Below are positions 1 through 17,574 of a stretch of 64,000 nt of DNA, in pieces. A program made the position numbers and the translations under genes. Each line of letters begins with the position of its first letter. Position 1 is the stretch's first letter. Below the pieces are notes generated by a model that was given only the letters and a program-made list of their open reading frames with translations, was not told where the DNA came from and made no database searches. The DNA comes from Planctomycetota bacterium (lineage in GTDB: Bacteria > Planctomycetota > UBA1135 > GCA-002686595). Location: positions 18,801-82,800 of the forward strand of contig NYYZ01000044.1 in assembly GCA_002686945.1 (NCBI GenBank), written 5' to 3'.

Positions 1-1
1 C

Positions 2-595
2 CCCTGGGCTGCAGGGCGCACCTTTCTTTGGACCACCACGATCGGTCGCGCTTGGACTCCGTTGCCCCAGTTGGCCCCAGCAATGGTACCCCTGGTTGTG
101 GAATGGGTGCGGTATGCAGGACGACGGGACGCAACGGAACTCTCCGCATTACCAGGAGAATCGCCCGTCTTGAAAACCAAAGAGTTCCCGCGCCAGCCCA
201 TTCTCATGCGGCCCGATGGCACCACCCGCACCCTGGCAGGCGAACCCACTCCAACCCCGGCCGGACAATTCATCCTGCCACGACCCGCTGGCAACGACAC
301 CCAACGGGTGGGGCTCTACACAGTGAGGACGGCAGACAGTCCACCAATTCCCTTCGCTATCAGCGTTGACCCCGCTGAATCAGATCTTGTGCGACTCAGT
401 CCCCAACGGCTTGGAAGTCTGCACCCGAATCTAGTCATCGCGTCGCCCCGAAATGATTCCACCGACACGGGTACGACCGGCGAGGACAGGGAAGGTGAGC
501 TCTGGCGTCTGGTGGCATGGTTGTGCCTGCTGTTCCTGGTATGCGAGTCCCTTTGGGGAGCGCGCCTGGGTCGCCGCCGAGGAGGACGAGCATGA
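2..595 (+). CDS. 5'-truncated CDS: C-terminal part of a Bat-like envelope/membrane protein
   Basis: The frame is open from the window edge, with no stop between nt 2 and 62, and is the same frame as ORF 62..595. The C-terminus has a TM helix (ELWRLVAWLCLLFLVCESLW) followed by RLGRRRG. Its stop overlaps the next start (ATGA at 592-595). Confidence 0.6.
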   Translation, partial: PWAAGRTFLWTTTIGRAWTPLPQLAPAMVPLVVEWVRYAGRRDATELSALPGESPVLKTKEFPRQPILMRPDGTTRTLAGEPTPTPAGQFILPRPAGNDTQRVGLYTVRTADSPPIPFAISVDPAESDLVRLSPQRLGSLHPNLVIASPRNDSTDTGTTGEDREGELWRLVAWLCLLFLVCESLWGARLGRRRGGRA

Positions 596-2973
596 TCGCC
601 CTCATACCAGCGCCTCAAGGCGGCGAGTCCCTGGATACCAGTTGGCGCCTCTTGGAACTGCCAGCCGGCTGGGTTGTGGCTCTGATCATCCTGCCCATCT
701 CTCTGGGAATTGCGCTTGCCGCCTACCGCTCCGAACGTCTGGAGACAGGGATGCGTGCGCTCCTGGTGGGCCTGCGTTGGTTGGCTCTCCTGGGGCTCTT
801 GACAATCTTGGCGCGACCTGTGGAGGTTCGCTCCCAGGAGCGGGTTTCCCAAGCCGAAATCCTGATTCTGGCGGACGACTCCGCCAGCATGAGTCGCCGT
901 GACGCCTACTCGGGTGACGCCCAGGCCAGCGCGGCTTTGATAGATATCCTGGGGGCCGACCCAGGAGAATTCACGCGGGCGGAGATCACCGCCAGCCTTC
1001 TCCAGGGACAACTCACCGAACACCTTGAGCAACGGGGCTACGACACCCGTCTGATGCGCTTCGCCCAACGAGCCGAGCCCCTGGCGGACAGCACACACCT
1101 CACGGGCCGTGGTTCCGCGACCCACCTGGGGGACGCCGTGACCGCCGCACTGGCCCGGGCCCGGGGTCGGCATGTGACCGGCCTGATTGTGCTCAGCGAT
1201 GGACGCTCAAACGGCGGCCTGGCGACCCTCGACGCGGCTCAAGAAGCTCGACTGGCCGGCATTCCAGTCCACACCATCGTGATCGGAGACACACGCCCCG
1301 AGCGCAATCTGCTCCTGGAACTGGTGGAGGTACCGAGTTCGGTGCTGGAAGAGGACGAGATCGCCATCACAGTGCGCGTACGCGGTCGGGGCGTGATGGG
1401 AACCGAGTCGATCGAAGTAGTGCTCGAAGAAGTCAGCGCTTCGGGCACGGGACGCACCCTCGACCAAGCGCGCATTCAAGTCAACAGCGAGGGCCAGCGA
1501 GTCACCCTGATCGCAGAGGGTCAGCGCACGGGTTCGGGCAACAACGAACGACGCTTCCGCATCAGCGTCCCGCCCCTGGCCGAGGAGCGCATGGTGGACG
1601 ACAATCAGGTCAGCGCCACCGTGCGCATCAATCCAGAGCGCATCCGGGTGTTGTATGTGGATGGCTACCCGCGCTGGGAGTACCGCCAATTGAAAGACAT
1701 GCTCCTGCGTGCGGATGAGCGCATCGAGGCCCAGTTGTTCTTGCTCTCAGCCACGCCGGATTTCCCCCAGGAGGCGACGCGCGGCCTGGATCGCCTGACC
1801 CGGGTCCCCACCGAGCGTCAGGCCCTGCTCGATGCCTACGACGTGATCATCCTGGGAGACCTGAACCCCTGGGCGATTTCCAGCAACCCGGCCTTGGGCC
1901 AGGAATTCGTAGCCAGCCTGACCGACTTCGTGGAAGAAGGGGGAGGCCTGTGTGTGATCGCCGGTGAATACGACATGCCCAAGGCAGTAGCGGGCACGGA
2001 GTTCGCTCAACTGCTTCCCGTGGTGCTCGACCCCACTGGTTCCCTGGCTTTCGAAGTGGACGCCAGCGTGGAAAAGTGGCCGACCCTGGAGCAGCCCGCC
2101 AATCCTCACCAAATCGTGCGCCTGCATCAGGACCCACAAGTCAATCAGCAACTCTGGGAAGGACCCGATGGCCTGCGCGGATTCTATTGGCACTTCCCGG
2201 TGCGCGGCCCCAAGCCCGGAGCCCAGGTTCTCTTGCGACACCCCAGCGCCTCCCTTTCCGGCAGCGGTGAACGGGACCCCTTGCTGGTGGCGGGTTATCA
2301 CCCGGCGGGCCGCTCCCTCTTCTTGGGGCTGGATTCAACACACCGTTGGCAGTTCCGCTACGAACACCGCTACCACGAACGCTTTTGGCGCAATGTGATT
2401 CGCTGGTTGGCCATTGGCCGCCTGAAGGGTGGCGATCGACGTTTTCAATTGGACTCCTTGGAACCCGAATACGGTCTCGATGAACGCGTAACCCTTGAAG
2501 CGAGAATTCAGGATGAAGACTTCCGCCCACTGGAAGCAGAGAGCCAGGAGGTCCATTTGGAGGATCCCGATGGTCGCCGTAGCACGATTCTGCTCAAGGC
2601 TGATCCGACCCGACCAGGTGTCTTCCGCGCCAGCCAGGACGCGGGCCGCGCAGGCAACTGGCGCGCCTGGATCGAACAGCAAGGTAAACATCTCGCCAGC
2701 ACGCAATACGATGTGGTCCTTCCAAGCCGCGAGAACAGCGATCCCACCCCAGACGCTCCGAACATGCTGGCCCTGGCCCAGCGCACTGAAGGAGTGGCGG
2801 TCACCCCAGGAAACCTGAGCCCCCTGCTGGCCGCCCTGCCTGGTGGCCAGGAACGCCGGGAGCCAATCTCCAAGGAATTGAACGATGCCTGGGACCGCTG
2901 GAGCACCCTGCTGGGGGTCCTGGCCCTCTTGACCCTTGAGTGGATCCTGCGCAAGCGCCATGAGTTGATCTGA
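592..2973 (+). CDS. vWA-domain plus GATase1-like (DUF1355-type) membrane protein, BatA/BatB-like
   Basis: There is an N-terminal TM helix (WVVALIILPISLGIALAAY). vWA signatures are a MIDAS-type DxSxS in ILILADDSASMS, LIVLSDGRSNGG and IPVHTIVIGD. IRVLYVDGYPRWEYRQLKDML, YDVIILGDL and GGGLCVIAG match the putative-amidotransferase-like module. A C-terminal TM helix (LLGVLALLTLEWIL) is present. GGAGGA lies 5 nt upstream of ATG 592. Confidence 0.8.
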   Translation: MIALIPAPQGGESLDTSWRLLELPAGWVVALIILPISLGIALAAYRSERLETGMRALLVGLRWLALLGLLTILARPVEVRSQERVSQAEILILADDSASMSRRDAYSGDAQASAALIDILGADPGEFTRAEITASLLQGQLTEHLEQRGYDTRLMRFAQRAEPLADSTHLTGRGSATHLGDAVTAALARARGRHVTGLIVLSDGRSNGGLATLDAAQEARLAGIPVHTIVIGDTRPERNLLLELVEVPSSVLEEDEIAITVRVRGRGVMGTESIEVVLEEVSASGTGRTLDQARIQVNSEGQRVTLIAEGQRTGSGNNERRFRISVPPLAEERMVDDNQVSATVRINPERIRVLYVDGYPRWEYRQLKDMLLRADERIEAQLFLLSATPDFPQEATRGLDRLTRVPTERQALLDAYDVIILGDLNPWAISSNPALGQEFVASLTDFVEEGGGLCVIAGEYDMPKAVAGTEFAQLLPVVLDPTGSLAFEVDASVEKWPTLEQPANPHQIVRLHQDPQVNQQLWEGPDGLRGFYWHFPVRGPKPGAQVLLRHPSASLSGSGERDPLLVAGYHPAGRSLFLGLDSTHRWQFRYEHRYHERFWRNVIRWLAIGRLKGGDRRFQLDSLEPEYGLDERVTLEARIQDEDFRPLEAESQEVHLEDPDGRRSTILLKADPTRPGVFRASQDAGRAGNWRAWIEQQGKHLASTQYDVVLPSRENSDPTPDAPNMLALAQRTEGVAVTPGNLSPLLAALPGGQERREPISKELNDAWDRWSTLLGVLALLTLEWILRKRHELI

Positions 2974-3034
2974 AGCGACGCCCAACTGAACACAGGTGTC
3001 GCAACGCGGCTCCTGCCCAACAACACGAATAGCC

Positions 3035-6000
3035 ATGCTTCCACTTCAAAGCACCCGTCCCAGGTCACGCCTTGGGATCGCAGCCTTGCTGCTGTTGCTG
3101 CCCCCGGCCCTGACCCAGGGCTTGGGGGAGAAGGACATGGACCATGCGTATCACCTGTACGACACGCAGATGGCCAGGGCCCTGGCGGAAAAAGCGCAAG
3201 AGCACTTTGCCGCCGAACGCTACAGCGAAGGGCTGGCGGAAATGCAACGCCTGAGGGAGGAGCACCCCAAGGCGATTCTCAAATTCAAAGGGCCTCCCCC
3301 CAGCCGCACCAGCAAGCAGAACATAGAGAGCATGCTGCGCTACGTGGGAGTCGATCGCTGGGCCCTCCAGGTGCTGAGCACCGCACCTCCCGAAGCAGTG
3401 GACCTCTACCGTCAACGCCATCAGGCCGCGGCCCAGCGCGCCCTGGTACGCGCCCTGGAATTAGCGACCCGTGGAGACCACGAAGCTCTAGTGCACCTGG
3501 CCCGCCGTTGGCCCCTGACCCAGGCCGCCGCCCGGGCCTGGTTGGCAGTGGGCGATGTGGAGTACGAGGCCGGGCGCCCTGGACTTGCGCGCGCCGCCTG
3601 GAGCCGGACTGCGCGCTCCCTCGATCCCAATCAAACATCACCTGACCTGCCAACTGAGGCCAGGAAACGGACAGCGGAGGATCCCATCTGGGCGGCCCTC
3701 GACCGCCGACTGAGCCGCTGGAATCCCGACTCGACCGTACCGACCCAGCGCGGGCTCTCGGCCATAAACGGACAGCCCTTCGCGGGCCGCGCCTTTGGTA
3801 ATGAACCCGAAGGCTGGCCCAATCGACTGAGCTTGCCCCCCAATCCATTCCATACCAGCCGAGAAGGACGCCTGAGGTTCTTCCCCATACGCGTTGAAAA
3901 CCGTCTCCTGGTCAGCACCAGTCGCGACCTGTTCTGCCTGCATGCAGAGACCGGCGACCTCGAGTGGCGCAGCGGCCGCGACCCTCTGGTGGAACAATTG
4001 CCCGGATGGAATGAGATCGAATCGAGCAGCTACTCCAACCGGCGCTTCAGTGAGGCGGTGGACAACCGCGAACGCATCGTCTCCCCCGCCGCCAACCAGA
4101 CCACCGTGGTCAGTACCTTCCAGTTGCCCTTCGAAGTGGAACCGGAACATGACTACAACGACCTTGAGATCATCCAGGTGCTGCCCGAACGACGACTGGC
4201 AGCTTTTGATCTGGAAACCGGCGAGCGCATCTGGGATCACTTTCCCCACGGAAACTGGGATGGGGATTCTGGCAGCTATGCAGAACGCTTCACTATCGCC
4301 AGTCCGCCCCTGGTGGTGGGTTCCCATGTGATCGTGCAATGCGCCCGGACCCGTGGTCGTATTGAGCTGAATGTGGCCTGCTACGACCTTGAAGCTGGGC
4401 ATCTGGTCTGGAAAACGCCACTGATCACGGGGCAGCGTGAACTGAACATGTTCGGCCGCGCTCTCAAGGAATTCGTAGCACCACCGCTGGTGTACGAAGA
4501 TGGCCGCCTGTATGTGCAGACCCAGTTGGGAGTCCTCGCGGCCCTGGACCTCTTCAGCGGTACGCCCCTCTGGGTAACCTCCTATGACCAGGTGGAAATG
4601 ACCTCTGGCCGCTGGCAACAGGGAGGCCGCATGAGCACGGTCTGGCGCAATGTACCTCCTGTCCTGAGCGAGGGCCTGCTGCTTGCAACTCCCCTCGACA
4701 GTCCCGATCTGATCTGCCTGGACTTGAAGACAGGAGAGCCGAGATGGACGGTCTCGAATGCCATCCTGTGCCTGGGGGTCGACTCCCTCAGGGGCAAGGG
4801 TGTGCTCGATCATCTGGTGGGGGTCAGCAACCGGCGAGTGATCCTTGGGGGGCGTCGCGTGGCGGCCTTTGAGCCTCCCGCGGGAGGCTTGGGTATGCGC
4901 GCCCCTCGGCGGCTTGCCTGGGCGTTTCCTGCGGGAACCTCCCAGCCCCTGGGTGCGGTGGTTGCACAGCCCTTGATCACAGGCTCGACAATTCTGATTC
5001 CCGACACCCGGGAACTGGTGGAACTCGACGCTCGCACGGGCCGCCGCACGGGCATCTTGCAATGGCCGGACGATGGCAATCTGCTGGTAGAGGAAGGGGT
5101 CTTCTTCATCACCCACGCCCGAGGTGTACGCGGGTACTTTGAATGGAACGACCTTCTCAGCCGCGCACGCAAGGCGGTCAAGGATGACACCGAACGAGTT
5201 CTGCCGCGCATCCGCCTGGGTCAATTGCTGGTGGGCCGCGCGGAATCCATCATCACCGGTCGTCAGGACGCGCGGGACTTGATTGAAGCGGATCGCTGTC
5301 TGAGCGAAGCAGAAGAGAGCCTCAGCACCATCGAATTGACAGACACCCAGAACAAGGAGGTGCAGGAGGAGCTATTCAAGCTCTACCACACCCGCGCCCA
5401 TCTGGCCCGGGCAGCCATGGATATGAGCAGGGCGCAGCTGGCTTTACGCCAGGCCCTGGAGATTGCGCCAGACGCGGAACTCGCAGCCCGGACGCGAATG
5501 CACCTGCAGGAAATCCTGCGAGATCGCGACGAGGACCTGAGGGCAACGATCCTGACCGAGATGCTGGCCGCCAACCCGGAAGAACTAATGCTCTGCGCGG
5601 TGCTCAACGAACGACCCGCTGACCCCCTCTGGACCCAGCGCCTGCAGCCCCTGAAGACCATGCCCGCCGATCAGACCAGCAGTGAACGGGCCATGGTTTC
5701 AGTGGCCATGTTTGTGCACTCAGAGCGGGTGCGCGTACTGCTCAGCCAGGCCAACCCCAAGAACCAGAGCCGGGCCCAGGCGGAACTCTATGCCGTGCTC
5801 CAGGAGCGGGTCGATGAGCCTTTTTCCATAGGGCTTGAAGAACGCCCAGGGCCACGCATCACGCACGCCTGGCAGTGGGCCCGCACACTGCTGCAAGAGG
5901 GGTTGAAGCACCACAGTTGGATGTTGGACCCGGCAATTGAAGAGAAGGCCCAAGCCGAGTTGGCGACCGCACTACTCAACCCCGACTTCGACCAACTGGA

Positions 6001-7627
6001 CAGCATCCCCCAGCGCTGGCCCTACACACAAGCGGCCATCACCGCCCGTGACCTGCACTTTGAGTACGCAATCAACAACGGCAATCTGGCCATGGCAGCC
6101 AGCTTCTGCCTGACACCCCTGCCCGATGGCTGGCGCGTACCAGATCTCAGCGACGAGATGCTGTCCCAGATACTGCGCCTCAGCAAGCTGGTGGCAGAGC
6201 TTGGGAACACAGAGTTCCCGGCTGGACTCATGACTCGACTTGCCAAGGAAAGTCCACATCGTGAACTGCTCGACCTGGAGGGCCAGCCCAGCACGATCGA
6301 AAAAATCGCCAGGGCCTTAGCGTCAAAGCGCAAGCCCCGAGTCATCCCGTCCGCACCCCGACTGAATTCGTCCATGACCATGCGTACGATGACCCCGGAC
6401 AGCGCCGTCGAGATTGCCCGTGTGCAAGCCTCCAGCGAAACCAAGACCACACTGGTACTGGCCCGCTCAACTCAGGTCACTGGCTACCGAGACGGACCCA
6501 TTCCCCTTTGGACCCGGGAAATTCAGGGGCGCTCACGCATTTCCCGCGAACCAAAACGCAGCGTTGCAAACGGAGACTTGTTGCACCTGGCCCTGCCTCA
6601 GTGGATCGAGACCATAAACATACACACGGGTGAGGTCATCTGGACGACGCCGCCAAGCATGGACACCTACTCGTCGGTGCAGACGTCGAGCGGGCTGGTG
6701 ATCGCCAGCGCCGACAGGGGGTTCACCCAAAACGTCTTCGCTCTCGAAGCGCAAACCGGAGTAGAACTTTGGCGCTGGCGCAAACAGCGCATGTCCCGCA
6801 CCCCCCCCACCATCAGCGATGACCACGTGATCATCTGGCCCGAGGGCCGCGGTAGGGCGTTGGTCCTTGATCTCTTCAGCGGTCGTGAATGCGCTTCCTT
6901 CCTGGTGCCTCGCACGCACGCGGCCGAATTGGAGGCTGCCTTCATTCGAGATGGGATCCTGATCATGGTACCCCTCTCGCGCCTGGGCACCCCCCGAGAC
7001 AACCACCTCATGGCAATCGACTTGTCAAGCGGCGAGCAGATCTGGCAGATCAACCTTTCCACCCCGGAAAACGAATCCGAAGCGGTCAACGTACTGCACT
7101 CCAAGGGCCGCACCTGGTTGGTCCTGGTCCAGCGCAAGAACGGCAATAGCCAGAGCAGGATCTGTGAGCTCTTTTGGGACCGGGGCCTGCTCGACCGTAG
7201 CCCCGTAGCGCGCATCCCCGCCCGGGGAGAACTGGTGGGCATCCAACGCCAGGACACATTGCAACTTGAGCAACCCTTGGTACTGGTGGCCGACACCACC
7301 CTGCGCCGGATCATCGCCATCGACCTGGAAGTCGGTCGACGGTGGAGTTCCCAGCTCCCGAAAGAACTGCTGACGGTTCGAGGTACAAAGACCATGCCCC
7401 CAATCTGGGGCCAGAGCAGAGTGGCCTTGGTGCTGTCGCGCATGAGCCCAGATCCACGCAGTGGACCCCAGCCAGTGCTCGTGCAACTGGATCGCAGCAC
7501 AGGCCGTATGCTTGACCGTCAGGACATGGATCGGCAACCCCAGGGCTCCCAAGCCCGCGCTTCAGCATTACCCTTTGATGGTGGGCTGTGGTTTTGTCTG
7601 GACCAACGTTCGGAGTACTACCGATGA
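3035..7627 (+). CDS. Giant secreted PQQ-like (BamB-type) beta-propeller / TPR-like repeat protein (~1530 aa)
   Basis: A signal peptide is present (MLPLQSTRPRSRLGIAALLLLLPPALTQG). Repeated propeller strands pair with W-containing motifs (ETGDLEWRS, ETGERIWDH, EAGHLVWKTPL, KTGEPRWTV, HTGEVIWTT, SGEQIWQI). A central helical repeat region is present. The start at ATG 3035 was chosen over GTG 2996. Confidence 0.75.
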   Translation: MLPLQSTRPRSRLGIAALLLLLPPALTQGLGEKDMDHAYHLYDTQMARALAEKAQEHFAAERYSEGLAEMQRLREEHPKAILKFKGPPPSRTSKQNIESMLRYVGVDRWALQVLSTAPPEAVDLYRQRHQAAAQRALVRALELATRGDHEALVHLARRWPLTQAAARAWLAVGDVEYEAGRPGLARAAWSRTARSLDPNQTSPDLPTEARKRTAEDPIWAALDRRLSRWNPDSTVPTQRGLSAINGQPFAGRAFGNEPEGWPNRLSLPPNPFHTSREGRLRFFPIRVENRLLVSTSRDLFCLHAETGDLEWRSGRDPLVEQLPGWNEIESSSYSNRRFSEAVDNRERIVSPAANQTTVVSTFQLPFEVEPEHDYNDLEIIQVLPERRLAAFDLETGERIWDHFPHGNWDGDSGSYAERFTIASPPLVVGSHVIVQCARTRGRIELNVACYDLEAGHLVWKTPLITGQRELNMFGRALKEFVAPPLVYEDGRLYVQTQLGVLAALDLFSGTPLWVTSYDQVEMTSGRWQQGGRMSTVWRNVPPVLSEGLLLATPLDSPDLICLDLKTGEPRWTVSNAILCLGVDSLRGKGVLDHLVGVSNRRVILGGRRVAAFEPPAGGLGMRAPRRLAWAFPAGTSQPLGAVVAQPLITGSTILIPDTRELVELDARTGRRTGILQWPDDGNLLVEEGVFFITHARGVRGYFEWNDLLSRARKAVKDDTERVLPRIRLGQLLVGRAESIITGRQDARDLIEADRCLSEAEESLSTIELTDTQNKEVQEELFKLYHTRAHLARAAMDMSRAQLALRQALEIAPDAELAARTRMHLQEILRDRDEDLRATILTEMLAANPEELMLCAVLNERPADPLWTQRLQPLKTMPADQTSSERAMVSVAMFVHSERVRVLLSQANPKNQSRAQAELYAVLQERVDEPFSIGLEERPGPRITHAWQWARTLLQEGLKHHSWMLDPAIEEKAQAELATALLNPDFDQLDSIPQRWPYTQAAITARDLHFEYAINNGNLAMAASFCLTPLPDGWRVPDLSDEMLSQILRLSKLVAELGNTEFPAGLMTRLAKESPHRELLDLEGQPSTIEKIARALASKRKPRVIPSAPRLNSSMTMRTMTPDSAVEIARVQASSETKTTLVLARSTQVTGYRDGPIPLWTREIQGRSRISREPKRSVANGDLLHLALPQWIETINIHTGEVIWTTPPSMDTYSSVQTSSGLVIASADRGFTQNVFALEAQTGVELWRWRKQRMSRTPPTISDDHVIIWPEGRGRALVLDLFSGRECASFLVPRTHAAELEAAFIRDGILIMVPLSRLGTPRDNHLMAIDLSSGEQIWQINLSTPENESEAVNVLHSKGRTWLVLVQRKNGNSQSRICELFWDRGLLDRSPVARIPARGELVGIQRQDTLQLEQPLVLVADTTLRRIIAIDLEVGRRWSSQLPKELLTVRGTKTMPPIWGQSRVALVLSRMSPDPRSGPQPVLVQLDRSTGRMLDRQDMDRQPQGSQARASALPFDGGLWFCLDQRSEYYR

Positions 7628-8751: not shown

Positions 8752-8755
8752 TCCA

Positions 8756-11071
8756 ATGCCTACGACCCAATCGGATTCAGGTCAGACCAAGGGCCAACTG
8801 GCCACGCCCAGGCTCGATCAGGCCCTGGATCGCCTGCGGATTGGCCTGCGTGGACTGCTCCTGCAGCATGGTCTGGGAACTGTATTGTTGGCCGCCGGGT
8901 CCTGGCTGGCATTCGCATACCTCGTCGACCGCAGCCTGCACCTGCCTGTGGCTCTACGTGTATTGGACGGAGTGCTGCTATTGGCACTGCCGCTCTTGGT
9001 CTTGCGCCGCGAAGTTCTCTTGCGCCTAAAGCAACTGCCCGATGGCGCCGGTCTGGCGGTGCTGCTGGAGCGAGATCTTGAAGGCTCCGAGGATCGCCTG
9101 GTGAGCGCACTCGGACTGCGCTCGATTCCCCCCAAGGACCCCGCTCGGCCCTTGGTGGAAGCTCTGGTGGTTGAAGCGGAAGAACTGGCCACGACCCTCG
9201 ACAGCAAGCATGTTCTTGATGCCAGCGGGCCGCGCAAACGGCTGGGCCTGGGCTTGCTCAGCGCGGCTCTGGCCAGTGCCTTGCTCCTGAGTGACCCCGC
9301 CCTGGGCGCGATCTTCGTACGTCGGGCCATGGGCCAGGACGTGGCCTGGCCCCGACAAACCAACCTCAGCGTACAGCTCTCTTTACCCTTGGGAGTCGAG
9401 GCCACGGAAACAGGTCCTGGCCATCTGCATGCACGCATCGCCCGTGGAAGTGATGTGACCTTGATGGTCAGCATCAAGGGTCAGATCCCCGACGAGATCG
9501 TGCTGCACTTTGGCGACGGCAGCCGCAGCGTAGTTCACACAGCCGGCGCCACCAGCGTACGCCCCAGCCTTCGCAATGTGCAGGCCTCTCAGGAGGTCTG
9601 GGTCATCGGTGGCGACGACGACCGGGGCCTGCCGCGCATCCAACTCGAAGTCCTGGAACCCCCTGACATCAGCGAGTTGGCCTTCATCGTGACGCCTCCG
9701 GGCTATACGGGCCTCCAGAAAACGGTGGTGCGTGGCACCGAGGTGCGCGCCCTGGTGGGCAGCCGTATCGATGTGTTGATTCGCCCTGACCCACCGGGGG
9801 CCACTGGCATCCTCAGGGTGCTGGGAGAGACTGGCACGATCGAGCTCGTACCGCGCCCGTGGAGCCTCCCCGGCGGCTCCCAAGAGGACACGGCCCTCGG
9901 TTGCAGCCTGGATGTGGATGTTGAGCGCTACTTCCAGGTGGAACTTGTAGACCAGCAGGGCTTGAGCAATCCCGACCCCGGGACCTATGCCCTGCAAGTG
10001 ATCGTTGACCGAGAGCCAGAGGTGATCCTGCTGGCCCCTGCGAGCAATGAGTGGTCCGTTGTAAAGGGCGGCGCAATCCCACTGCGTGTGCGCGCCGAGG
10101 ATGACTTTCGCATTGACCGCCTGAGTTTTGATGTGCGCGACTCCCAGGATCTGGAAACAGCTCTGCTCGAAGCAGAGCTGGCGTTTGAAGAAACCGCACT
10201 TCTGGATGGCGGTTTCATTGGCAACGGACATCTGGTTCTCGCGCACGAGTTGATTGAGCTCAATCAGATCGCCGGAGCTGACGTGGAACCCGGTTGGAAT
10301 GCGATCTTGCAAGTGGTCGCCCGGGACTCACACCCCTCCCCGGACCATCAGGCAATGAGTCCACCCGTACGCCTGCGCTGCGTCAGCGGCGATGAATTTC
10401 TGCGCAAGGTCAAGGATGGCCTCGCTCGGGCTGGAGAAGATGCCGGACGCCTGCTGCAGGAAACCCAGGACCTGCGCACGCGCGCATCCCAATTGAAGAG
10501 CGCCTTGGAAACCGGCGAGGTAGCCACGGATCGCGAACTGGGCAGCCTGCTGCACTCAACCCGTCGCCTGCAGGGAGACACCCGGAGCTTGGGGCGAGAT
10601 CTCTCGGGCCTGGCCGAGGGCCTGACCTACAACAGACTGGACGAGCGAGCAGGCCCTCTGCTGGACGCGCTGCACCGGGCCCTGGGAACCCAGGCAGCAC
10701 GCACCTTTGCCCCCGCTCCATGGCGCGAGGTGGCAGCCCAACTCAGCGCAGGTCGCCTGGGCACTCCGGAACTCGCGGGAGAGATGATCGCCCTGGTGGA
10801 CCTCGCCCTCTCGGTCAGCGAGGGCTCGGGCAAAGACGCATCCGAAGCACTGACGGGTGCCCGCACTGCCGACAGCGCGGCCAGCGCCGGCCCCCACCTG
10901 CTGAACGCCGTGGCTGCCCTGGACCTCTCCCTGGCAGCCCTCGATGCCCTGAGCACACGTTTGGGAGAATGGGACAACTTTCAGAGCGTGCTTACGTTGA
11001 CCAAAGATCTGCTCAACCGACAAAAGAACCTGACCGAGCGTACGAAGAACTTTGCCGAGGGAAACAAATGA
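8756..11071 (+). CDS. DUF4175-like membrane protein (N-terminal TM helices, beta-rich middle, C-terminal coiled coil)
   Basis: ATG 8756 lies 5 nt after the upstream stop. TM helices are present (LGTVLLAAGSWLAFAYLV, VLDGVLLLALPLLVL, LGLGLLSAALASALLL). Repeated Ig-like beta segments are followed by a helical tail. The family assignment is by architecture only. Confidence 0.55.
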   Translation: MPTTQSDSGQTKGQLATPRLDQALDRLRIGLRGLLLQHGLGTVLLAAGSWLAFAYLVDRSLHLPVALRVLDGVLLLALPLLVLRREVLLRLKQLPDGAGLAVLLERDLEGSEDRLVSALGLRSIPPKDPARPLVEALVVEAEELATTLDSKHVLDASGPRKRLGLGLLSAALASALLLSDPALGAIFVRRAMGQDVAWPRQTNLSVQLSLPLGVEATETGPGHLHARIARGSDVTLMVSIKGQIPDEIVLHFGDGSRSVVHTAGATSVRPSLRNVQASQEVWVIGGDDDRGLPRIQLEVLEPPDISELAFIVTPPGYTGLQKTVVRGTEVRALVGSRIDVLIRPDPPGATGILRVLGETGTIELVPRPWSLPGGSQEDTALGCSLDVDVERYFQVELVDQQGLSNPDPGTYALQVIVDREPEVILLAPASNEWSVVKGGAIPLRVRAEDDFRIDRLSFDVRDSQDLETALLEAELAFEETALLDGGFIGNGHLVLAHELIELNQIAGADVEPGWNAILQVVARDSHPSPDHQAMSPPVRLRCVSGDEFLRKVKDGLARAGEDAGRLLQETQDLRTRASQLKSALETGEVATDRELGSLLHSTRRLQGDTRSLGRDLSGLAEGLTYNRLDERAGPLLDALHRALGTQAARTFAPAPWREVAAQLSAGRLGTPELAGEMIALVDLALSVSEGSGKDASEALTGARTADSAASAGPHLLNAVAALDLSLAALDALSTRLGEWDNFQSVLTLTKDLLNRQKNLTERTKNFAEGNK

Positions 11072-13947
11072 GGAACCTGAGAATCCAGCTGCGGTCCATA
11101 CCACGCGCCCTGGCACAACTGACCCCGATTCTTGGTGCCCTCCTGCTGATCAGTCCAGGTCTTTCGAGATCGCTCCAAGAGGATACTCCCCAAGACGGTG
11201 GCATCTCCCGTGAGCAAGCGGCCCTGGCAGAAGAACAAGCTCTCATCCGCCGTCAACTGCGTCGCCTGCGGGAGACCATGAGCGCCCTGGCAGGTCGCTT
11301 GGAATCCGAAGGCCGGGTGCATGCGGCGGGCCTGCTGCGAGATGCCCTCGAAGATCTAGATCAACGATCCCAAGAAAGCAACGGACGCACCTTGGAGGAG
11401 TTGATCGATTCTTCTCGGGATGATCTCAGCGGTGGCCGCACCATGAGCGCCCTGGAACGGCAGCGTGCTGTAGAAGCGCGTTTGATGCGCCTGCTGGAAA
11501 TTCTGCTGGACCGACGCTCCCTCGATACTCTTGAAGAAGAACTGGCCCGCCTGAAGGAAATCAAGGAGGCTCTCCGGGAATTGAGTGGCCAGGAAGCAGG
11601 CCTGCAGGAAAAGACAGCAGCCCTGCGTCAGGCATCCAAGACCCGCGAACACCTGTCCTTGGAAGCAGCCCTTGAACGGATCAACCAGGAGCAGCGAGAT
11701 CTCTTGCATCGTTCGGAAGAACTTGCCCACTCATCGGGGACCTTTGACCTGGAGCAGCTACGCGCACGCCTGGCGGAGATGCTCGGCGATCAGGAACTGG
11801 CCGTGGGAGCACTGTCCACCTGGTCCCCCGCTGATGCCCAACGCCTGGAAGCCCTGCGCCCCGCTCTGGAAGCGGCCCGCTCCGCGGAAGAACAGGCCAT
11901 GAGCCTGCAGGAGAGCGCCGATTCATTGGCAGCCAGCGCCAAGGCCGATGATCTCGAAGCCAGCGCTGCTGCCTTGACAGAAGAATCCGCCCGCAAGGGA
12001 CGCCAGGCCCAAGCCTCCGGTGACGAGTTGTTGCAGGAGGCCGCCAAGGCCCTCGCGGAGACAGCTGAACAGATGCGCGCCGCCAACACCGAGGCGCAGA
12101 AGGCCGCTGCCAGGGCAGCAGCCCAGACCCAGGCACAACAGCTCGCCGGGGCCGCAACCGAAGCGCGCAACGCAGCCCGTAAGGCGCGCTCGGAATCTCT
12201 CCCCGCCGCAGAACAGATCGCTACCGAACAGACCACAACCGGAGCCGCCGCCAAGCGCATTGCTGAAGCCCTGCGCGAGGCGCAGAACTCCACCAGCCCC
12301 GAAACCAGCGCCGCGGAAACCGATCGCGCCGCTCGCGGAGTGGACGAAGGCCTGCATGCCCAATCGCGCATGGGCGATGCGATCAAGGCCAGCCAGGAAG
12401 AAGGCCAAGAACGCTCCGAGCGCCTAGCCAAGGACCTGGAACACACTGCCGCCAGCCCCACCCAACCTCAGATCAGCAGGGCCAGTGCCAGCCAAGCCGC
12501 CGAGGCCCTGCAACGCGGCGCGAAGGCGCAACAGCAGGCCGCCCAAGCTGCGGGCTCCCAGTCACAGGAGGCCGCCAAGCAAGCAGCCCAGCAGGCAGAA
12601 TCTGAACTGCGACAAGCCCTTGAGGCCCTCGATGAAGCCATAGCCCAGGCAGCAGAGAAAGACGGACGGCAGGACCAGCGCAAGGCACTCGCAGAAGAAC
12701 AGGCCTCACTGGAAGAGGACCTGGCCGAAGCAGCCAAGAACACGGACAGCGCAAGCCTAGGAAAGAGTGCACAAGAGGCAGTCCAAAGAGCAATCGAACA
12801 GGCCCGTAGCGCCATGAAGCAAGCAGCCAGCTCCCTGTCCAAACCTGGACAGGGCAAAGCGGCCGCGGAACAGCAACGCGAAGCCATAGATGCATTGAAC
12901 AAGGCCCAGAACAGCGCGGGAGAAGGCACCCAACCTTCAAGCCCGGAGGGCCAACAGACCGCCGCCGAGCTCGCGGCCGAACAGGAGCGACTGCGCCAGG
13001 AGATGCTCAACCTCGCCCGTCGCAACCAAGAGCGCAATGAAGCGGCCTCCAACGAAGCCCTCGACAGCGCCGCCGAGAACGCCCAGAAGGCAAGCCAATC
13101 CTTGAGTCAGGCGTCAGGTTCCCAGAGCCAGGGTTCCCCATCCGGAGGCCAGGAGGAACAGAACCAACCCGAAGAATCTGGTGGCCTGGAGCAGGCCGAA
13201 GAGCAAGAAGCGCGCACCCAGCAGGACCTGCAACAGGCCATGCGCGAACTTGAAGAGGAGGAGCAGCAGTACCAACGCCTGCGCCAGGAGGAGCTGCTCT
13301 TCCAGATCAAATCGGAAGTGGAAGCCATGCGGACCTCTCACTCAGAACAAATGAAGGCCACCCTCTCTGCGGACGAAGCCCGGGCCGGCTCACGCAATGT
13401 CTCCCGTCGCACGCGCATCACCCTGCGCTCGATTGCCCGAGAAGAAGACGCGGTGGGCGCACGAGCCAAGAAGGTAGCGGACGCCCTCGAAGAAGAAGGG
13501 GTACTGGTCTTCCACGAGATCATGCGAAACATCGAAAGCGATCTGACGCGCATCGTGCGAGACATGGGCGAGGGAGGCGGCTACCAATCGGGTGCTCCCT
13601 TACAGGCCTTGCAGAATGATGTGCTCCAATCTCTGGACTGGCTGGCAGGCGCCCTGAAAGACGAAATGGAGCGCCGCGAGCAGGAGCAGCAGGAGCAGGA
13701 ACAAAGCGAGGACGATCCTCCCCTGGTGCCAGATGCGGCCGAATTGCGTCTGCTGAAGAAGCTCGAGGAAGATGTTCTCGAGCGTCTCGCCCAGTTGCAG
13801 GTGTTGCACCCTGAGCTCGAAGACCCCGATGCGGAGCTCGATCCTCTGCTACTTGAAGAATTGACCCGCTTGGCCTACCAACACAGACGGGTTGGGGAAC
13901 TTTTTGAATACTTCAGGCGCCGTCTGGGAGTCCCGGACCCGGATTAG
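11068..13947 (+). CDS. Secreted giant coiled-coil, Ala/Gln/Glu-rich low-complexity protein (~960 aa)
   Basis: ATG 11068 overlaps the upstream stop (ATGA). A signal/anchor segment is present (LAQLTPILGALLLISPGLSRS). Heptad-like A/Q/E/R/L stretches run for hundreds of residues. The ORF-track start at 10720 lies inside the previous gene and was rejected. Confidence 0.7.
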   Translation: MRNLRIQLRSIPRALAQLTPILGALLLISPGLSRSLQEDTPQDGGISREQAALAEEQALIRRQLRRLRETMSALAGRLESEGRVHAAGLLRDALEDLDQRSQESNGRTLEELIDSSRDDLSGGRTMSALERQRAVEARLMRLLEILLDRRSLDTLEEELARLKEIKEALRELSGQEAGLQEKTAALRQASKTREHLSLEAALERINQEQRDLLHRSEELAHSSGTFDLEQLRARLAEMLGDQELAVGALSTWSPADAQRLEALRPALEAARSAEEQAMSLQESADSLAASAKADDLEASAAALTEESARKGRQAQASGDELLQEAAKALAETAEQMRAANTEAQKAAARAAAQTQAQQLAGAATEARNAARKARSESLPAAEQIATEQTTTGAAAKRIAEALREAQNSTSPETSAAETDRAARGVDEGLHAQSRMGDAIKASQEEGQERSERLAKDLEHTAASPTQPQISRASASQAAEALQRGAKAQQQAAQAAGSQSQEAAKQAAQQAESELRQALEALDEAIAQAAEKDGRQDQRKALAEEQASLEEDLAEAAKNTDSASLGKSAQEAVQRAIEQARSAMKQAASSLSKPGQGKAAAEQQREAIDALNKAQNSAGEGTQPSSPEGQQTAAELAAEQERLRQEMLNLARRNQERNEAASNEALDSAAENAQKASQSLSQASGSQSQGSPSGGQEEQNQPEESGGLEQAEEQEARTQQDLQQAMRELEEEEQQYQRLRQEELLFQIKSEVEAMRTSHSEQMKATLSADEARAGSRNVSRRTRITLRSIAREEDAVGARAKKVADALEEEGVLVFHEIMRNIESDLTRIVRDMGEGGGYQSGAPLQALQNDVLQSLDWLAGALKDEMERREQEQQEQEQSEDDPPLVPDAAELRLLKKLEEDVLERLAQLQVLHPELEDPDAELDPLLLEELTRLAYQHRRVGELFEYFRRRLGVPDPD

Positions 13948-14030
13948 GACACGAATAGCCGAGCGTGCTATGCTCAATATGCTTGGCCCGCCGATAAGAT
14001 GAGATAACAGACCAATTGGAGATCAAGACA

Positions 14031-14462
14031 ATGAAGCTCACTCAGTTACTCACGCACCGCACACTGCACTGCGTGATGGCCTGCATCGCAGTCAGCCTAC
14101 TGGTCCTCCCGGCCCAGGCCCAGGATGGCGATCAGGCTCCCAAAGTGGACGACAAGCCGGTGGTAATCAACCCCTTCGCCGAACAGTCAGAGTCCGATGC
14201 GGAGCGCATGATCCGCCTCTTCCAGGAGGTCGAGCAACGAATGAACCGCAGCACCCAGTTGCTCTTCGATGCCAGCAAGGGTGACGTGGGTGCGTTGGAT
14301 CAAGTCAAGGGTTCCAACCTGGAGGAACTTGGCCGAACTGCGAACGCCAACCCCCGCGCCGCTGTCTCAAGTCTGCTGACCGCCTCCCAAGAAGAAGGCG
14401 CCCAGATCATATCAGCCATCGATGAGATTCTGGAAATCGCCGCCAGAAACGGCGGCACATGA
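14031..14462 (+). CDS. Small secreted protein, last part of the envelope operon
   Basis: GGAG lies 9 nt upstream of ATG 14031. A signal peptide is present (MKLTQLLTHRTLHCVMACIAVSLLVLPAQAQ). I recognise no family. Confidence 0.6.
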   Translation: MKLTQLLTHRTLHCVMACIAVSLLVLPAQAQDGDQAPKVDDKPVVINPFAEQSESDAERMIRLFQEVEQRMNRSTQLLFDASKGDVGALDQVKGSNLEELGRTANANPRAAVSSLLTASQEEGAQIISAIDEILEIAARNGGT

Positions 14463-14471
14463 AGCGGTTCC

Positions 14472-14858
14472 ATGAGCGGTGAGGGCAGTTCGTCCTCCGA
14501 AACCCCCGGCAGCACCCAGGCCCAATCCCAAGAGGAAAGCGGCCAGAAGAAAGATGGTGCGGAAGAACCCCGGGAAGGTGAAGAACAGAGCAATCCTTCT
14601 GAACAACAGTCCGACCAGGGCCAGCCCAAGGGCAACCAGCCCGACCAACCCGGCGGCCGCAAGGATCGCGGCAAAGTTGCAGCAGAAGGCGAAAAAGAAG
14701 CAGCCCGCCGTCCTGGCAACGACGTGGAAATCTGGGGCAACTTGCCGATCCACCTGCGCGACATCTTCCGCGCCGAAGGACAGGGAGACATGCCCGCCCG
14801 TTACCGCGACTGGATCGATTCCTACTACCGCCGGCTGAACGAGCGCGGCGAGCACTAG
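14472..14858 (+). CDS. Small acidic/low-complexity protein with a conserved-looking C-terminal motif (WGNLPIHLRD...PARYRDWIDSYYRRL)
   Basis: ATG 14472 lies 9 nt after the previous stop. The N-terminal half is S/E/Q/G-rich and disordered. The C-terminal tail is Arg/Tyr-rich and ordered. Confidence 0.5.
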   Translation: MSGEGSSSSETPGSTQAQSQEESGQKKDGAEEPREGEEQSNPSEQQSDQGQPKGNQPDQPGGRKDRGKVAAEGEKEAARRPGNDVEIWGNLPIHLRDIFRAEGQGDMPARYRDWIDSYYRRLNERGEH

Positions 14859-14932
14859 GGCCTGGATTGGATGCCGGGCGACCTGAACGGCCCCAGCGGA
14901 CAATTACCCAAGCCTGCCACTTGGACCCTTTT

Positions 14933-15439
14933 GTGCAGATTCGCCTGGAGAAAGAACGGGACCAGCGCGCTGTGCATGCAGTCAACTCTTCGGCCTTTGA
15001 AACGCGAGCCGAAGCAGACCTGGTCGATGTCCTACGGGAGCAGGCTAGACCACACATCTCGCTCATTGCCGAGGACAAGGGAATTATCATTGGTCACATC
15101 ATGTTCTCGCCCGTTTCGCTCAGGGGCCATCCGAAGATCAGGGCCCTGGGCCTCGCCCCAATGGCGGTGACACCCAGGCGCCAACGCCAGGGAATCGGCA
15201 CAGCCCTCGTTCAGGCCGGTTTGGAACACTGTAAACGAGGGAATTTCGCGTTTGCAGTGGTCCTCGGCCACCCACGTTTCTATCCACGCTTTGGCTTCCG
15301 CCCAGCGCGTGAGCTTGGCATCGACAGCGAATACGACGTCCCTCCTGAGGTTTTCATGGCCCTTGAGTTGGAGCCGGGAGCCCTCGAGGAGAAATCTGGG
15401 AGAGTGCGCTACCATGCAGCCTTCAACAATCTGTCCTAG
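14933..15439 (+). CDS. GNAT family N-acetyltransferase (YhbS-like)
   Basis: IRLEKERDQRAVHAVNSSAF, a CoA-binding-type RRQRQGIGTALV motif, and VLGHPRFYPRFGFRPA are present. GTG 14933 was chosen because the upstream M of the ORF track adds a non-GNAT extension. The start is uncertain. Confidence 0.8.
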   Translation: MQIRLEKERDQRAVHAVNSSAFETRAEADLVDVLREQARPHISLIAEDKGIIIGHIMFSPVSLRGHPKIRALGLAPMAVTPRRQRQGIGTALVQAGLEHCKRGNFAFAVVLGHPRFYPRFGFRPARELGIDSEYDVPPEVFMALELEPGALEEKSGRVRYHAAFNNLS

Positions 15440-17522: not shown

Positions 17523-17553
17523 CTACCCTCAACGCTAGAAAACCAAAGAGGTC

Positions 17554-17574
17554 GATTCACGCTTCTCGTGAATC
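17554..17574. promoter_or_regulatory. Perfect 8-bp inverted repeat (candidate operator) in a divergent promoter region
   Basis: GATTCACG-cttct-CGTGAATC lies between the ATG of the minus-strand coiled-coil gene (17522) and the start of the NHL gene (17634). Confidence 0.35.

Follow-up and report, generated by a model that had tools for sequence, protein, structure and literature searches.

Described MoxR systems and their relation to the locus

Operons of the Bat or MoxR 'MRP' type (moxR-DUF58-batA-batB-batC-batD-batE) are described from Bacteroidota, Spirochaetes and Francisella. A second relevant system is RL3499-RL3502 of Rhizobium leguminosarum (Alphaproteobacteria), a four-gene operon of the composition MoxR-DUF58-(BatA_N/DUF4159)-DUF4175. 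Among Bat-like modules, only Mxa has a client and a task that are known: MxaR (MoxR), MxaS (DUF58) and MxaA, C, K and L together insert Ca2+ into a periplasmic PQQ beta-propeller methanol dehydrogenase (PMC12276312).

The stretch of DNA analyzed here (64 kb, termed the window) starts at position 9410 of its source contig (L001) and covers the last two-thirds of a single operon-like cluster, approximately 11-12 genes long, that is conserved in a lineage of Planctomycetota to which Engelhardtia mirabilis belongs. The first half of the cluster reads TPR/propeller protein (666 aa), MoxR AAA+, DUF58, BatA-type vWA membrane protein, G2 and G3, and the second half continues from G3 with toroid 1 (G4), G5, G6, a small exported protein with a proposed Sec or Cys residue (G7-G8) and toroid 2. 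In this cluster a widespread and unexplained MoxR/Bat-type envelope system is extended by giant propeller, toroid and coiled-coil proteins. Features within the window were as follows.

1-595, + strand: gene 1, last 197 codons (3' end) of the gene for a 745-aa BatA-type membrane protein
592-2973, + strand: G2, 793-aa membrane protein; its start overlaps the upstream stop (ATGA)
3035-7627, + strand: G3, 1530-aa exported protein (length from the gene caller)
7624-8751, + strand: G4 (toroid 1), 375-aa secreted alpha/alpha-toroid; ATGA overlap with G3
8756-11071, + strand: G5, 771-aa DUF4175-type membrane protein
11068-13947, + strand: G6, 959-aa coiled coil, N-terminally anchored or exported; ATGA overlap with G5
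14031-14858, + strand: G7-G8, proposed single exported protein of 275 aa in which codon 144 is selenocysteine
14867-15439, + strand: GNAT acetyltransferase (Pfam GNAT matches), between G8 and toroid 2
15444-16682, + strand: toroid 2, secreted 412-aa protein paralogous to G4; conserved last gene of the cluster

Common to the cluster and the Bat operons are a MoxR AAA_3 ATPase, DUF58, the BatA N-terminal double-TM domain, membrane vWA proteins with intact MIDAS, and tight packing on one strand. Unlike the Bat operons, the cluster has no BatD (oxygen-tolerance) or BatC/BatE-type proteins, its vWA proteins are approximately 750-800 aa long, contain beta-sandwich and GATase1-like modules and end in a C-terminal TM, and it carries as extras the 1530-aa double propeller, two toroids, the DUF4175-type protein, the 959-aa coiled coil and the Sec/Cys protein. 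All four component types of RL3499-RL3502 are present in the same order, with a GATase1-like fold on BatA-type/vWA proteins in both systems and N-terminal TMs and long helical regions in both DUF4175-type proteins. The DUF4175-type gene of the cluster is, however, very divergent and followed by a separate coiled-coil gene, and five to six extra conserved genes are interleaved. Mxa and the cluster each place a MoxR, DUF58 and membrane/periplasmic vWA module beside a gene for a periplasmic PQQ-type beta-propeller, and by this analogy G3 may be a client of the MoxR/DUF58 module of the cluster. In contrast to Mxa, G3 is no recognizable quinoprotein dehydrogenase, and MxaJ, MxaI and cytochrome cL are absent from the cluster.

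Gene content, junctions and conservation

The original prediction was of an eight-gene, translationally coupled envelope operon ending at 14858, read as an expanded Bat-type machine; this was confirmed in part, with the 3' boundary in error and the gene number (G7/G8, see below) probably so. All listed ORFs were verified in the sequence to lie on the + strand at their coordinates, as predicted. The start/stop ATGA overlaps at 592-595, 7624-7627 and 11068-11071 are real (3 of 3). Gaps of 5 to 83 nt had been given for the remaining junctions, and measured 61 nt for G2-G3 (2973 to ATG 3035), 83 nt for G6-G7 (13947 to ATG 14031), 9 nt for G7-G8 (14462 to 14472) and, for the smallest, 4 nt for G4-G5 (8751 to 8756). 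Terminator and promoter signals on the + strand were none above chance. In agreement with the prediction of a signal peptide or TM helices in all products but the last, a hydrophobicity scan gave an N-terminal signal or TM segment for each of G2-G7 and a TM at the C-terminus of the gene-1 fragment, and no such segment for G8.

Extension of the contig upstream recovered the predicted MoxR and DUF58 genes, which together with that for the 745-aa BatA-type protein immediately precede G2 with overlapping or near-abutting junctions; the conserved TPR/propeller gene lies upstream of MoxR. MoxR matched AAA_3 at 204 bits and also passed the Pfam bpMoxR model (50.6 bits), with the Walker A motif GVPGLAKT, and the DUF58 protein scored 156 bits; export signals were absent from both. 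The full BatA-type gene (L001:7767-10004; PF07584 BatA, 65 bits; TIGR02226, 72 bits) encodes an N-terminal double-TM domain, a vWA domain with a DGSAS MIDAS, a large periplasm-facing region, a C-terminal TM and an Arg-rich tail. DxSxS is intact in all three vWA-type proteins, and signal or TM segments are present in every product after DUF58.

G2 begins with two TMs at the N-terminus, followed by a vWA domain, a beta region and a GATase1-like (DUF1355) module, and closes with a C-terminal TM. Its predicted fusion of a DDSAS MIDAS vWA to a DUF1355-like module was borne out by the motif and the VWA score (24.1 bits; cut-off 23.8), with GATase1_like at 24.5 bits falling below its cut-off of 27; many of its homologues (n = 689) carry precomputed PF00092/PF07090 matches. 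G3 was confirmed as a 1530-aa PQQ propeller protein, with an N-terminal helical/TPR-like region and, after it, two beta-propellers of the PQQ/BamB type on either side of a long helical segment (PQQ_2, 107 bits in two stretches; BamB-type PQQ_2 was the best-fitting model). It scored far under the cut-offs of PQQ-enzyme models (TIGR03075, PQQ alcohol dehydrogenases; 48 versus 480 bits) and matched no PDB sequence, and the analogy to Mxa is therefore architectural only.

G4, predicted to be an alpha-toroid, matched SQHop_cyclase_C/N and Prenyltrans, with 7xqz as nearest PDB entry (E 9e-7), and is very strongly conserved with invariant residues. Toroid 2 aligned with G4 over the full length (30% identity, E 3e-38) and shares a C-terminal LPIF(Q/R)R; both toroids are single-domain and secreted, with no conserved DxDD and no shared Cys/His/Asp Zn site. 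A second toroid was found downstream of G8 in 57 of 79 loci, including every locus extending that far, and in L088 it overlaps the G7-G8 stop; the cluster thus runs past 14858. The intervening GNAT gene, which only L003 and L004, the nearest two loci, share, is a recent lineage-specific insertion outside the conserved cluster.

The label 'DUF4175-like' for G5 was upheld at the family level. The window's own G5 matched no Pfam model, 7 of 54 relatives matched PF13779 (best E 2e-11), and G5 aligned with a 1268-aa protein of Gemmatirosa (E 1.6e-34) within a superfamily of 13,636 representatives; by these alignments G5 is a divergent member of the DUF4175 superfamily. In an AF2 model (pLDDT 92.3) a TM hairpin is followed by a small helical domain and a third TM, and then by approximately four beta-sandwich domains and a C-terminal helical bundle; for this model Foldseek returned generic Ig/MG arrays only. 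G6 has conserved ends and an Ala/Gln/Glu-rich center and weakly matched positions 658-743 of the DUF4175 profile, a region also matched by 15 of 40 orthologues (best E 2e-8); at the profile level it resembles a different part of the DUF4175 model than G5 does.

The order of seven genes was scored in 80 related loci, from Planctomycetota MAGs and from Engelhardtia mirabilis, without a single violation; all seven genes were present in order in 42 of the 80. The MoxR-DUF58-BatA arrangement recurs in L083 (53% G2 identity), gene order is also kept in the more distant L086 and L088, and tight junctions recur in all three. The cluster is conserved in more than 100 Planctomycetota genomes, the component set, propeller and toroid genes among them, recurs in a different arrangement on a plasmid of Planctomyces sp. 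SH-PL62, and the MoxR-DUF58-BatA-DUF4175-type core is present in Gemmatirosa. The genomic neighborhood is of housekeeping type (IF-2, enolase).

A candidate selenoprotein at G7-G8

G7 and G8, originally counted as two genes, share one frame and are split only by the TGA at 14460-14462 plus 9 nt. Because of this shared frame, and because orthologues are single proteins of 250-300 aa, the stretch to 14858 probably contains seven genes. The combined product runs from a signal peptide and a helical N-domain through a GGT-U-SG motif and an acidic disordered linker to a conserved C-terminal motif (WGxLPxHxRDxFRxxGxxDMPxxYRDWIDSYYRRLN); no Pfam or NCBIfam model covers the family. Two further features are proposed.

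14460-14462, + strand: in-frame UGA, proposed to encode Sec; kept at this motif in 21 loci
14481-14497, + strand: proposed SECIS hairpin, GAGGGC-AGUUC-GUCCUC, its stem starting 18 nt after the UGA

We consider G7-G8 to be probably one previously unrecognized selenoprotein with a SECIS element, a reading based on comparative sequence evidence. Alternatively, the UGA could be an ordinary stop followed by termination-reinitiation at ATG 14472, with the hairpin a by-product of Gly/Ser-rich coding. In the window, as in most close relatives, an ATG does lie 9 nt past the UGA, and public gene calls include a 152-aa G7-only product (P0283); six loci (L017, L028, L031, L036, L048 and L057), however, have no start codon after the UGA, all 21 loci that keep the UGA preserve the frame with the codon always TGA, and the codons between UGA and ATG vary synonymously (GGT/GGC/GGA, TCC/TCA). 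G8 alone would lack an export signal, yet fused homologues export the same domain, and the UGA column is Cys in approximately 20 of 38 database homologues (GG-x-C-S, sometimes CxxC). The window's own hairpin is thermodynamically unremarkable (z-score only -0.36) and had no Rfam match, and neither sel genes nor tRNA-Sec were found in the 64-kb window, all of which would suit two genes. Against this, the hairpin covaries (92.9% of cells paired versus 31-51% in slid controls; 4 of 7 pairs compensatory) and was found in 90% of the orthologues with the UGA, compared with 8% of those without it. Two separate genes are accordingly judged unlikely.

Like bacterial selenoproteins with a SECIS (FdhF; CxxU/UxxC/UxxS redox proteins), the candidate combines an in-frame UGA, Cys homologues, some with CxxC, and a hairpin with an apical loop that begins 18-24 nt past the UGA and in most cases contains GU. 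It differs in having no thioredoxin-like or other known redox fold, in the position of Sec at the end of a helical domain and before a long acidic disordered linker, and in belonging to an unannotated family. In many orthologues the site holds neither Cys nor Sec, and a redox residue there is thus no universal requirement. The original prediction had missed the in-frame UGA with its candidate selenoprotein, toroid 2 on the far side of 14858 and, upstream of MoxR, the conserved propeller gene.

Proposed working and alternative readings

By analogy with the systems above, we favor, with some reservation, an elaborated MoxR/DUF58/BatA/DUF4175-class envelope system in which a motor would drive periplasmic assembly via membrane vWA proteins. 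The upstream MoxR, DUF58 and BatA genes, the conserved order and the DUF4175 family link support the expanded Bat-type reading that had been predicted; that the assembly spans the envelope is an inference. MoxR and DUF58 would act as cytoplasmic motor and MIDAS adaptor. Topology was read from the positive-inside rule and from a single in-vitro study, on a distant BatA-like homologue with its vWA on the periplasmic side (PMC5700661): the BatA-type protein, G2 and G5 would expose no more to the cytoplasm than short Arg-rich loops or tails or a small helical domain, placing their vWA, GATase-like and beta-sandwich domains in the periplasm. ATP-driven remodeling may then be relayed through these three proteins to exported partners, which would be assembled or loaded (by metal ion or conformational change). 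The propeller protein would be the likeliest client or scaffold, with the two toroids and the coiled coil as further partners and the Sec/CxxC protein as a putative redox-active or cross-linking element. The phenotype of bat mutants is partially rescued by reducing agents, as summarized in PMC3557215 from Tang et al. 1999; Leptospira Bat mutants had no detectable phenotype, which counts against the proposed working (PMC3557215).

A tentative second reading, in our estimate a minority one, is a structural envelope element: a tether or scaffold that spans the periplasm, is built from the coiled coil (approximately 960 aa), the DUF4175-type protein and the propeller, and maintains envelope integrity or cell shape, with MoxR/DUF58 serving assembly only, without cofactor-loading or redox chemistry. 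The long coiled coil of G6 and the beta-sandwich stalk and helical bundle of G5 would suit such a role, 'shapeshifting' Engelhardtia falls within the carrier lineage (bioRxiv 10.1101/817700), and RL3499-RL3502 is needed for membrane integrity and cell morphology, according to the work as cited in PMC3893208. The very strong conservation of the toroids and the Sec/CxxC residue would be left unexplained, however, and these genes are unmentioned in the Saltatorellota preprint; this reading also overlaps the elaborated MoxR system favored above rather than excluding it.

A metabolic operon, with G3 as PQQ-dependent dehydrogenase, the toroids as terpenoid cyclases or prenyltransferases and MoxR as maturation factor, is very improbable. 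Its best-match Pfam names (PQQ, SQHop_cyclase, Prenyltrans) and the maturation of PQQ methanol dehydrogenase by MoxR in methylotrophs (PMC12276312) are offset by the low dehydrogenase score and BamB-type fit of G3, its lack of a PDB sequence match, single-domain secreted toroids with neither a conserved DxDD nor a shared Cys/His/Asp Zn site, and a neighborhood free of PQQ-biosynthesis and isoprenoid genes. Least credible is a MoxR-vWA-beta-propeller 'ternary' biological-conflict (anti-phage) system, since the bpMoxR match and the combination of MoxR, vWA and propeller proteins in the cluster stand against a far higher AAA_3 score, no PADLOC model match for any of 10 proteins, no effector domains found, products that are exported or membrane-bound, and a housekeeping context syntenic in 80 loci, where defence islands are variable.

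Extent and layout of the cluster

Sequence upstream of the window was obtained by an exact-protein look-up of G2 (vWA/GATase1-like protein), which led to a 100-kb ENA contig (L001) on which the window begins at position 9410. The MoxR and DUF58 genes that the original prediction had expected directly upstream were found there, contiguous with G2, together with a 745-aa BatA-type protein (BatA745) whose C-terminus is gene 1 of the window; MoxR and DUF58 are 9 nt apart, DUF58 overlaps BatA745 by GTGA, and BatA745 overlaps G2 by ATGA.

Genes of the cluster, with window-relative coordinates unless marked L001 (the source contig); window rows were taken from ORF listing and junction analysis
L001:5821-6846, MoxR, AAA_3 204 bits and AAA_lid_2, Walker A GVPGLAKT
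L001:6856-7770, DUF58 protein adjoining MoxR, PF01882 156 bits, MIDAS DASES
L001, 5' of G2, BatA745, BatA PF07584 65 bits and TIGR02226 72 bits (double-TM domain)
..-595, + strand, gene 1 ORF, C-terminus of BatA745
592-2973, + strand, G2 ORF, vWA/GATase1-like protein
3035(2996)-7627, + strand, G3 ORF, 1530-aa double propeller
7624-8751, + strand, G4 ORF, toroid 1
8756-11071, + strand, G5 ORF, putative DUF4175-type protein
11068-13947, + strand, G6 ORF, 959-aa coiled coil
14031(14016)-14462, + strand, G7 ORF, first part of the small exported protein
14472-14858, + strand, G8 ORF, second part of the small exported protein

Within the window (G+C ~62%), all eight + strand ORFs originally described were confirmed, except that the last two, G7 and G8, share a frame and are read here as one gene. 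Junction analysis likewise bore out the ATGA stop/start overlaps at 592-595, 7624-7627 and 11068-11071, the other inter-ORF gaps being 61, 4, 83 and 9 nt. Export or TM signals had been ascribed to every product but G8, and a hydrophobicity scan agreed, placing a signal/TM segment at the N-terminus of G2-G7 and, for the gene-1 fragment, a TM at the C-terminus; G8 alone showed no signal or TM segment. No consensus promoter or convincing + strand terminator was found interrupting the cluster, a scan that is weak evidence in this phylum.

The cluster had been ended at 14858, which proved too early. An ORF at 15444-16682 with a signal peptide (toroid 2) encodes a protein paralogous to G4 over its full length (30% identity, E 3e-38), and the C-terminal LPIF(Q/R)R is common to both. 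A second toroid lies 3' of G8 in 57 of 79 loci, these being all the loci that reach far enough, and in L088 its start overlaps the small-protein stop by 4 nt. Because this toroid is conserved 3' of G8, the cluster extends to 16682. Between the small protein and toroid 2, with spacers of 8 nt and 4 nt, lies a GNAT acetyltransferase gene (14867-15439), seen outside the window only in the two closest loci (L003 and L004), which seems to have been inserted recently where the gene order is otherwise fixed.

Just 3' of the cluster, 17274-19517 encodes an NHL/SGL beta-propeller protein and 19993-21204 a di-haem cytochrome c peroxidase (CCP_MauG); both recur downstream in only 11-12 related loci, which may reflect a loose peroxide-stress association or simply local synteny. 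The remaining window holds housekeeping genes. A sigma-54 activator (34847-36028, - strand) and a 1123-aa Ser/Thr kinase-AAA_16-TPR protein (40455-43826) have no evident tie to the cluster.

At the other end, a 666-aa TPR/propeller protein, weakly collinear with the N-terminal half of G3, is encoded 5' of MoxR across a gap of 183 nt and occupies the same place in L083 (35% identity), a related locus in which MoxR is present too and the upstream part of the cluster is conserved as well. A 130-aa ORF with one TM segment (L001:3248-3640) overlaps the start of the 666-aa propeller gene; it probably lies outside the system, because it is missing from L083.

Conservation and membrane components

A G5 profile gave 115 matches in a one-genome-per-species collection, from which 80 loci were kept, all from Planctomycetota MAGs plus the cultured Engelhardtia mirabilis Pla133 (L056). 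When every cluster protein was searched against these loci by tblastn, the order BatA-G2-G3-G4-G5-G6-(G7)-G8 was found on a single strand and was violated in none of the 80 loci; the full set of seven tested genes was present in 42, the remainder being cut by contig or flank ends. The order is kept even in the distant L086 (G5 ~21% identical) and in L088. With this conservation across related genomes and with MoxR, DUF58 and BatA upstream, the proposal of an elaborated Bat-type machine is supported. No description of the expanded cluster or of the small protein was found in the searchable literature, and the supported reading is that the cluster is a new and enlarged form of a system already known, though opaque in its mechanism. 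A variant cluster in one JGI metagenome contig (L087:491-6006) encodes two further proteins between the toroid and G5-type genes, one an ECF sigma factor of 185 aa and the other 419 aa long, which hints that the system has its own regulation in some lineages.

In Planctomyces sp. SH-PL62, plasmid pPL62-3 carries, in order, a PQQ propeller, SIMPL, a toroid, MoxR (63% identical), DUF58, BatA, VWA, a G5-like protein (744 aa), a coiled coil (542 aa) and a small protein containing ECQGC and ...YRTVLERYYRRL. From this gene content, the propeller, toroid and Cys protein therefore accompany a MoxR/DUF58/BatA/VWA/DUF4175-type core elsewhere in the phylum, arranged differently. The plasmid copy (L090:3672-5116 and L089:1-1386) has apparent frameshifts in the toroid, MoxR and DUF58 genes, which may be decay or assembly errors; its MoxR, which runs across the record origin, has no entry in the gene table, and its DUF58 is annotated as two CDS. 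In the Gemmatimonadota form of the system, on plasmid 1 of Gemmatirosa kalamazoonensis (L091:5076-8576), a 1166-aa TPR protein with a weak Peptidase_MA_2 match lies between the VWA gene and MoxR, approximately the position of the Planctomycetota propeller proteins.

Among the membrane proteins, BatA745 has the MIDAS DGSAS, with VWA_2 reaching only 21 bits (below the cut-off of 27). For G2, described earlier as a vWA domain fused to a DUF1355-like module, the vWA half holds (MIDAS DDSAS; VWA 24.1 bits, cut-off 23.8), whereas GATase1_like (PF07090) stays at 24.5 bits, below its cut-off of 27, with precomputed PF07090 matches on many orthologues. BLASTP detected no paralogy between BatA745 and G2 beyond a weak collinear stretch, and DUF4159 itself was not matched. 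Of the further classical Bat components, BatD (oxygen tolerance) and the TPR(-SH3) proteins BatC/BatE, none was recovered: no BatD, SH3 or stand-alone TPR protein appeared in the Pfam matches of any cluster product; TPR-like helices were seen only inside G3 orthologues.

G5, G7 and G8 of the window match no family in Pfam or NCBIfam. The G5 superfamily comprises 13,636 representatives at E <= 1e-3 (exhaustive profile search), and the predicted DUF4175-like character of G5 was recovered through its relatives: 7 of 54 diverse family members match DUF4175 (PF13779; best E 2e-11), one of them aligning residues 287-443 with profile positions 179-328. In a Gemmatirosa protein of 1268 aa that adjoins MoxR-DUF58-BatA, residues 17-584 align with the G5 family (hhalign 99.9%, E 1.6e-34) and residues 507-671 with DUF4175 positions 621-766 (26 bits). 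The family matches and this alignment point to G5 as a divergent DUF4175-type protein. An AF2 model of G5 (pLDDT 92.3) has a TM hairpin, a small helical domain (residues 97-153) which the positive-inside rule would place in the cytoplasm, a third TM, about four beta-sandwich domains and a 225-residue helical bundle; a Foldseek search with it returned only generic tandem Ig/MG-domain arrays (TM-scores <=0.17). DUF4175 is also matched by 15 of 40 G6 orthologues (best E 2e-8) and weakly by G6 of the window (17.9 bits, cut-off 27.3; profile positions 658-743). Because positions 621-766 in the Gemmatirosa protein fall where the G5-type helical region begins, G6 may be an added or duplicated coil and not a split-off half of DUF4175. 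AT skew at 12001-14000 is 0.40, against a typical 0.0-0.2; this stretch is the Ala/Gln/Glu-rich centre of G6, whose coding strand is rich in GCA/CAG/GAA.

The small-protein gene and its in-frame UGA

The G7 and G8 ORFs lie in one frame, with a TGA (14460-14462) and three codons between them. An in-frame TGA within ...ILEIAxxNGGT*SG... was found in 21 loci, always as TGA and with the frame preserved, across G5 proteins down to ~36% identical to that of the window. Assemblies with the UGA form include DUBE01, JABABA01, JAPKBR01, PBIX01 and DUDB01, whereas E. mirabilis (NZ_CP036287) belongs to those that have Cys or neither residue. Non-UGA orthologues and 37 of 38 database homologues are single proteins of 223-327 aa with one signal peptide. 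The TGA column is Cys in ~20 of the 38 homologues (GG-[SQTE]-C-S), often the sole Cys of the protein, and this Cys stands within CxxC in database homologues P0285 and P0315, in L025 and in the SH-PL62 protein (CSSC; ECQGC in Planctomyces sp. SH-PL62). About half of orthologues have neither Cys nor Sec at the site, which suggests that the residue is adaptive rather than indispensable.

A hairpin follows the TGA in every UGA locus, with 5-9 bp, a stem starting 9-18 nt after the codon, and an apical loop starting 18-24 nt after it and mostly containing GU (AGUUC, GGUCA). A MAFFT-aligned RNAalifold run on sequence after the TGA gave no structure because of gaps inside the stem, and was replaced by a gapless loop-anchored alignment of 12 distinct sequences. 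In this alignment, whose register was picked by the hairpin search and so carries some ascertainment bias, 92.9% of cells are paired versus 31-51% with partners slid, compensatory changes occur in 4 of 7 pairs, and the covariation score is 0.58 versus 0.18 in shuffles (reached by 0 of 500). Among UGA orthologues, 90% attained the hairpin score, compared with 8% of non-UGA orthologues, scored at the corresponding site, and 3.8% of control positions (Mann-Whitney p = 2e-8, uncorrected for phylogeny). Single-sequence stability is modest (z -0.36 for the window; range -0.4 to -4.1), and an Rfam scan of 14380-14600 gave no meaningful match.

These features make it likely that 14031-14858 is one gene encoding a 275-aa selenoprotein (U144) with a SECIS at ~14481-14497. 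That G7 and G8 are two genes is unlikely: the start codon after the TGA is missing in six of the 21 UGA loci, and the domain homologous to G8 is exported in fused orthologues, G8 alone having no export signal. The selenoprotein family is probably unannotated and new, with its own SECIS, and currently stands as two hypothetical genes; current annotations would thus split the small-protein gene in two, and an unannotated family would join the bacterial selenoproteome. Within the 64-kb window, none of selA, selB, selD or selC (tRNA-Sec) was found, and ARAGORN reported no tRNA or tRNA-Sec; other Planctomycetes are reported to have Sec machinery (PMC4807772). When the window was scanned for further UGA-plus-hairpin read-through candidates, only out-of-frame artefacts came up.

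An AF2 model of a Cys homologue, of low confidence (pLDDT 59) and left out of the fold search, has an N-domain of helices that stops at the Cys; a long, acidic and disordered linker then leads to two helices at the C-terminus. Comparison of the G7-8 family with the G5 C-terminal helices by hhalign found no relation.

Topology and proposed working

No export signal is present in MoxR or DUF58. In BatA745, TM1 and TM2 are joined by an Arg-rich loop of 30 residues, and the C-tail is Arg-rich too; in G2 the loop is short and basic and the tail reads RKRHELI. The positive-inside rule would place the large vWA, beta and GATase-like parts of both proteins in the periplasm. The products encoded after BatA745 and G2 are all exported or anchored. 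In-vitro topology mapping of Borrelia BB0173 agrees with a periplasmic vWA orientation (PMC5700661). In the Mxa system, the sole Bat-like module with a known task, MxaR/MxaS/MxaA,C,K,L supply methanol dehydrogenase, at its periplasmic PQQ propeller, with Ca2+ (PMC12276312). In an analogous way, a MoxR/DUF58 motor, acting via the membrane vWA proteins and G5, could assemble or load a periplasmic complex, of which G3 would be a client or scaffold and the Sec/CxxC protein a redox or cross-linking element. A purely structural tether or scaffold is also plausible and overlaps this model.

A metabolic operon is unlikely on the evidence from the propeller and the toroids. G3 matches PQQ_2 (BamB-type, its best model) with 107 bits in two stretches, as its designation as a PQQ-type propeller implied, but PQQ-enzyme models score far below their cut-offs (TIGR03075 48 bits, cut-off 480; TIGR03074 30, cut-off 833), so that G3 was rejected as a PQQ-dependent dehydrogenase, and no sequence homologue of G3 was found in the PDB. 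G4 is the prenyltransferase-like alpha/alpha-toroid foreseen from sequence, with QW-type repeats (SQHop_cyclase_C/N PF13243 and PF13249, Prenyltrans PF00432; PDB 7xqz, E 9e-7). Both toroids are extremely conserved, and full-length cyclase models score far below cut-offs on them; they were not called cyclases or prenyltransferases because they have no conserved DxDD and no shared zinc site, no Cys being common to both families among columns >=93% invariant. A MoxR-vWA-beta-propeller conflict or defence system was rejected: the bpMoxR model does reach 50.6 bits on MoxR, but AAA_3 reaches 204 there, PADLOC matches none, and the cluster lies in a syntenic setting among housekeeping genes.

Clusters of the MoxR/DUF58/Bat type are found in many bacterial phyla and influence stress tolerance, envelope integrity and virulence; we know of no client or chemistry for them outside methanol dehydrogenase maturation. 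The present variant is informative in that candidate clients or partners (double propeller, two toroids, coiled coil) stand in strict synteny with the motor, and in that the conserved Cys of the small protein has probably become selenocysteine in many lineages, an upgrade that is normally a sign of a redox-active residue. The model of a motor-assembled periplasmic complex is genetically testable in Engelhardtia mirabilis, which is cultured and has the whole cluster, located in strain Pla133 at about 4.355-4.378 Mb.

An extension of this model, speculative and rather improbable, would make the small Sec/CxxC protein the chemically active heart of MoxR/DUF58/BatA/DUF4175 systems, its residue performing or receiving a thiol/selenol reaction in the AAA+-assembled periplasmic complex. 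That reaction could serve redox maintenance or the handling of metals, or it could be a covalent stapling or modification. The toroids might carry it out; their fold relatives, to our knowledge, all act on Cys thiols. If true, this would amount to a new selenoprotein family, with a SECIS variant that is also new, and would give the first mechanistic tie to the 25-year-old rescue of bat mutants by reducing agents. The redox residue is attractive only as a lead in this respect, because reducing agents partly rescue B. fragilis bat mutants, as far as summarised in PMC3557215.
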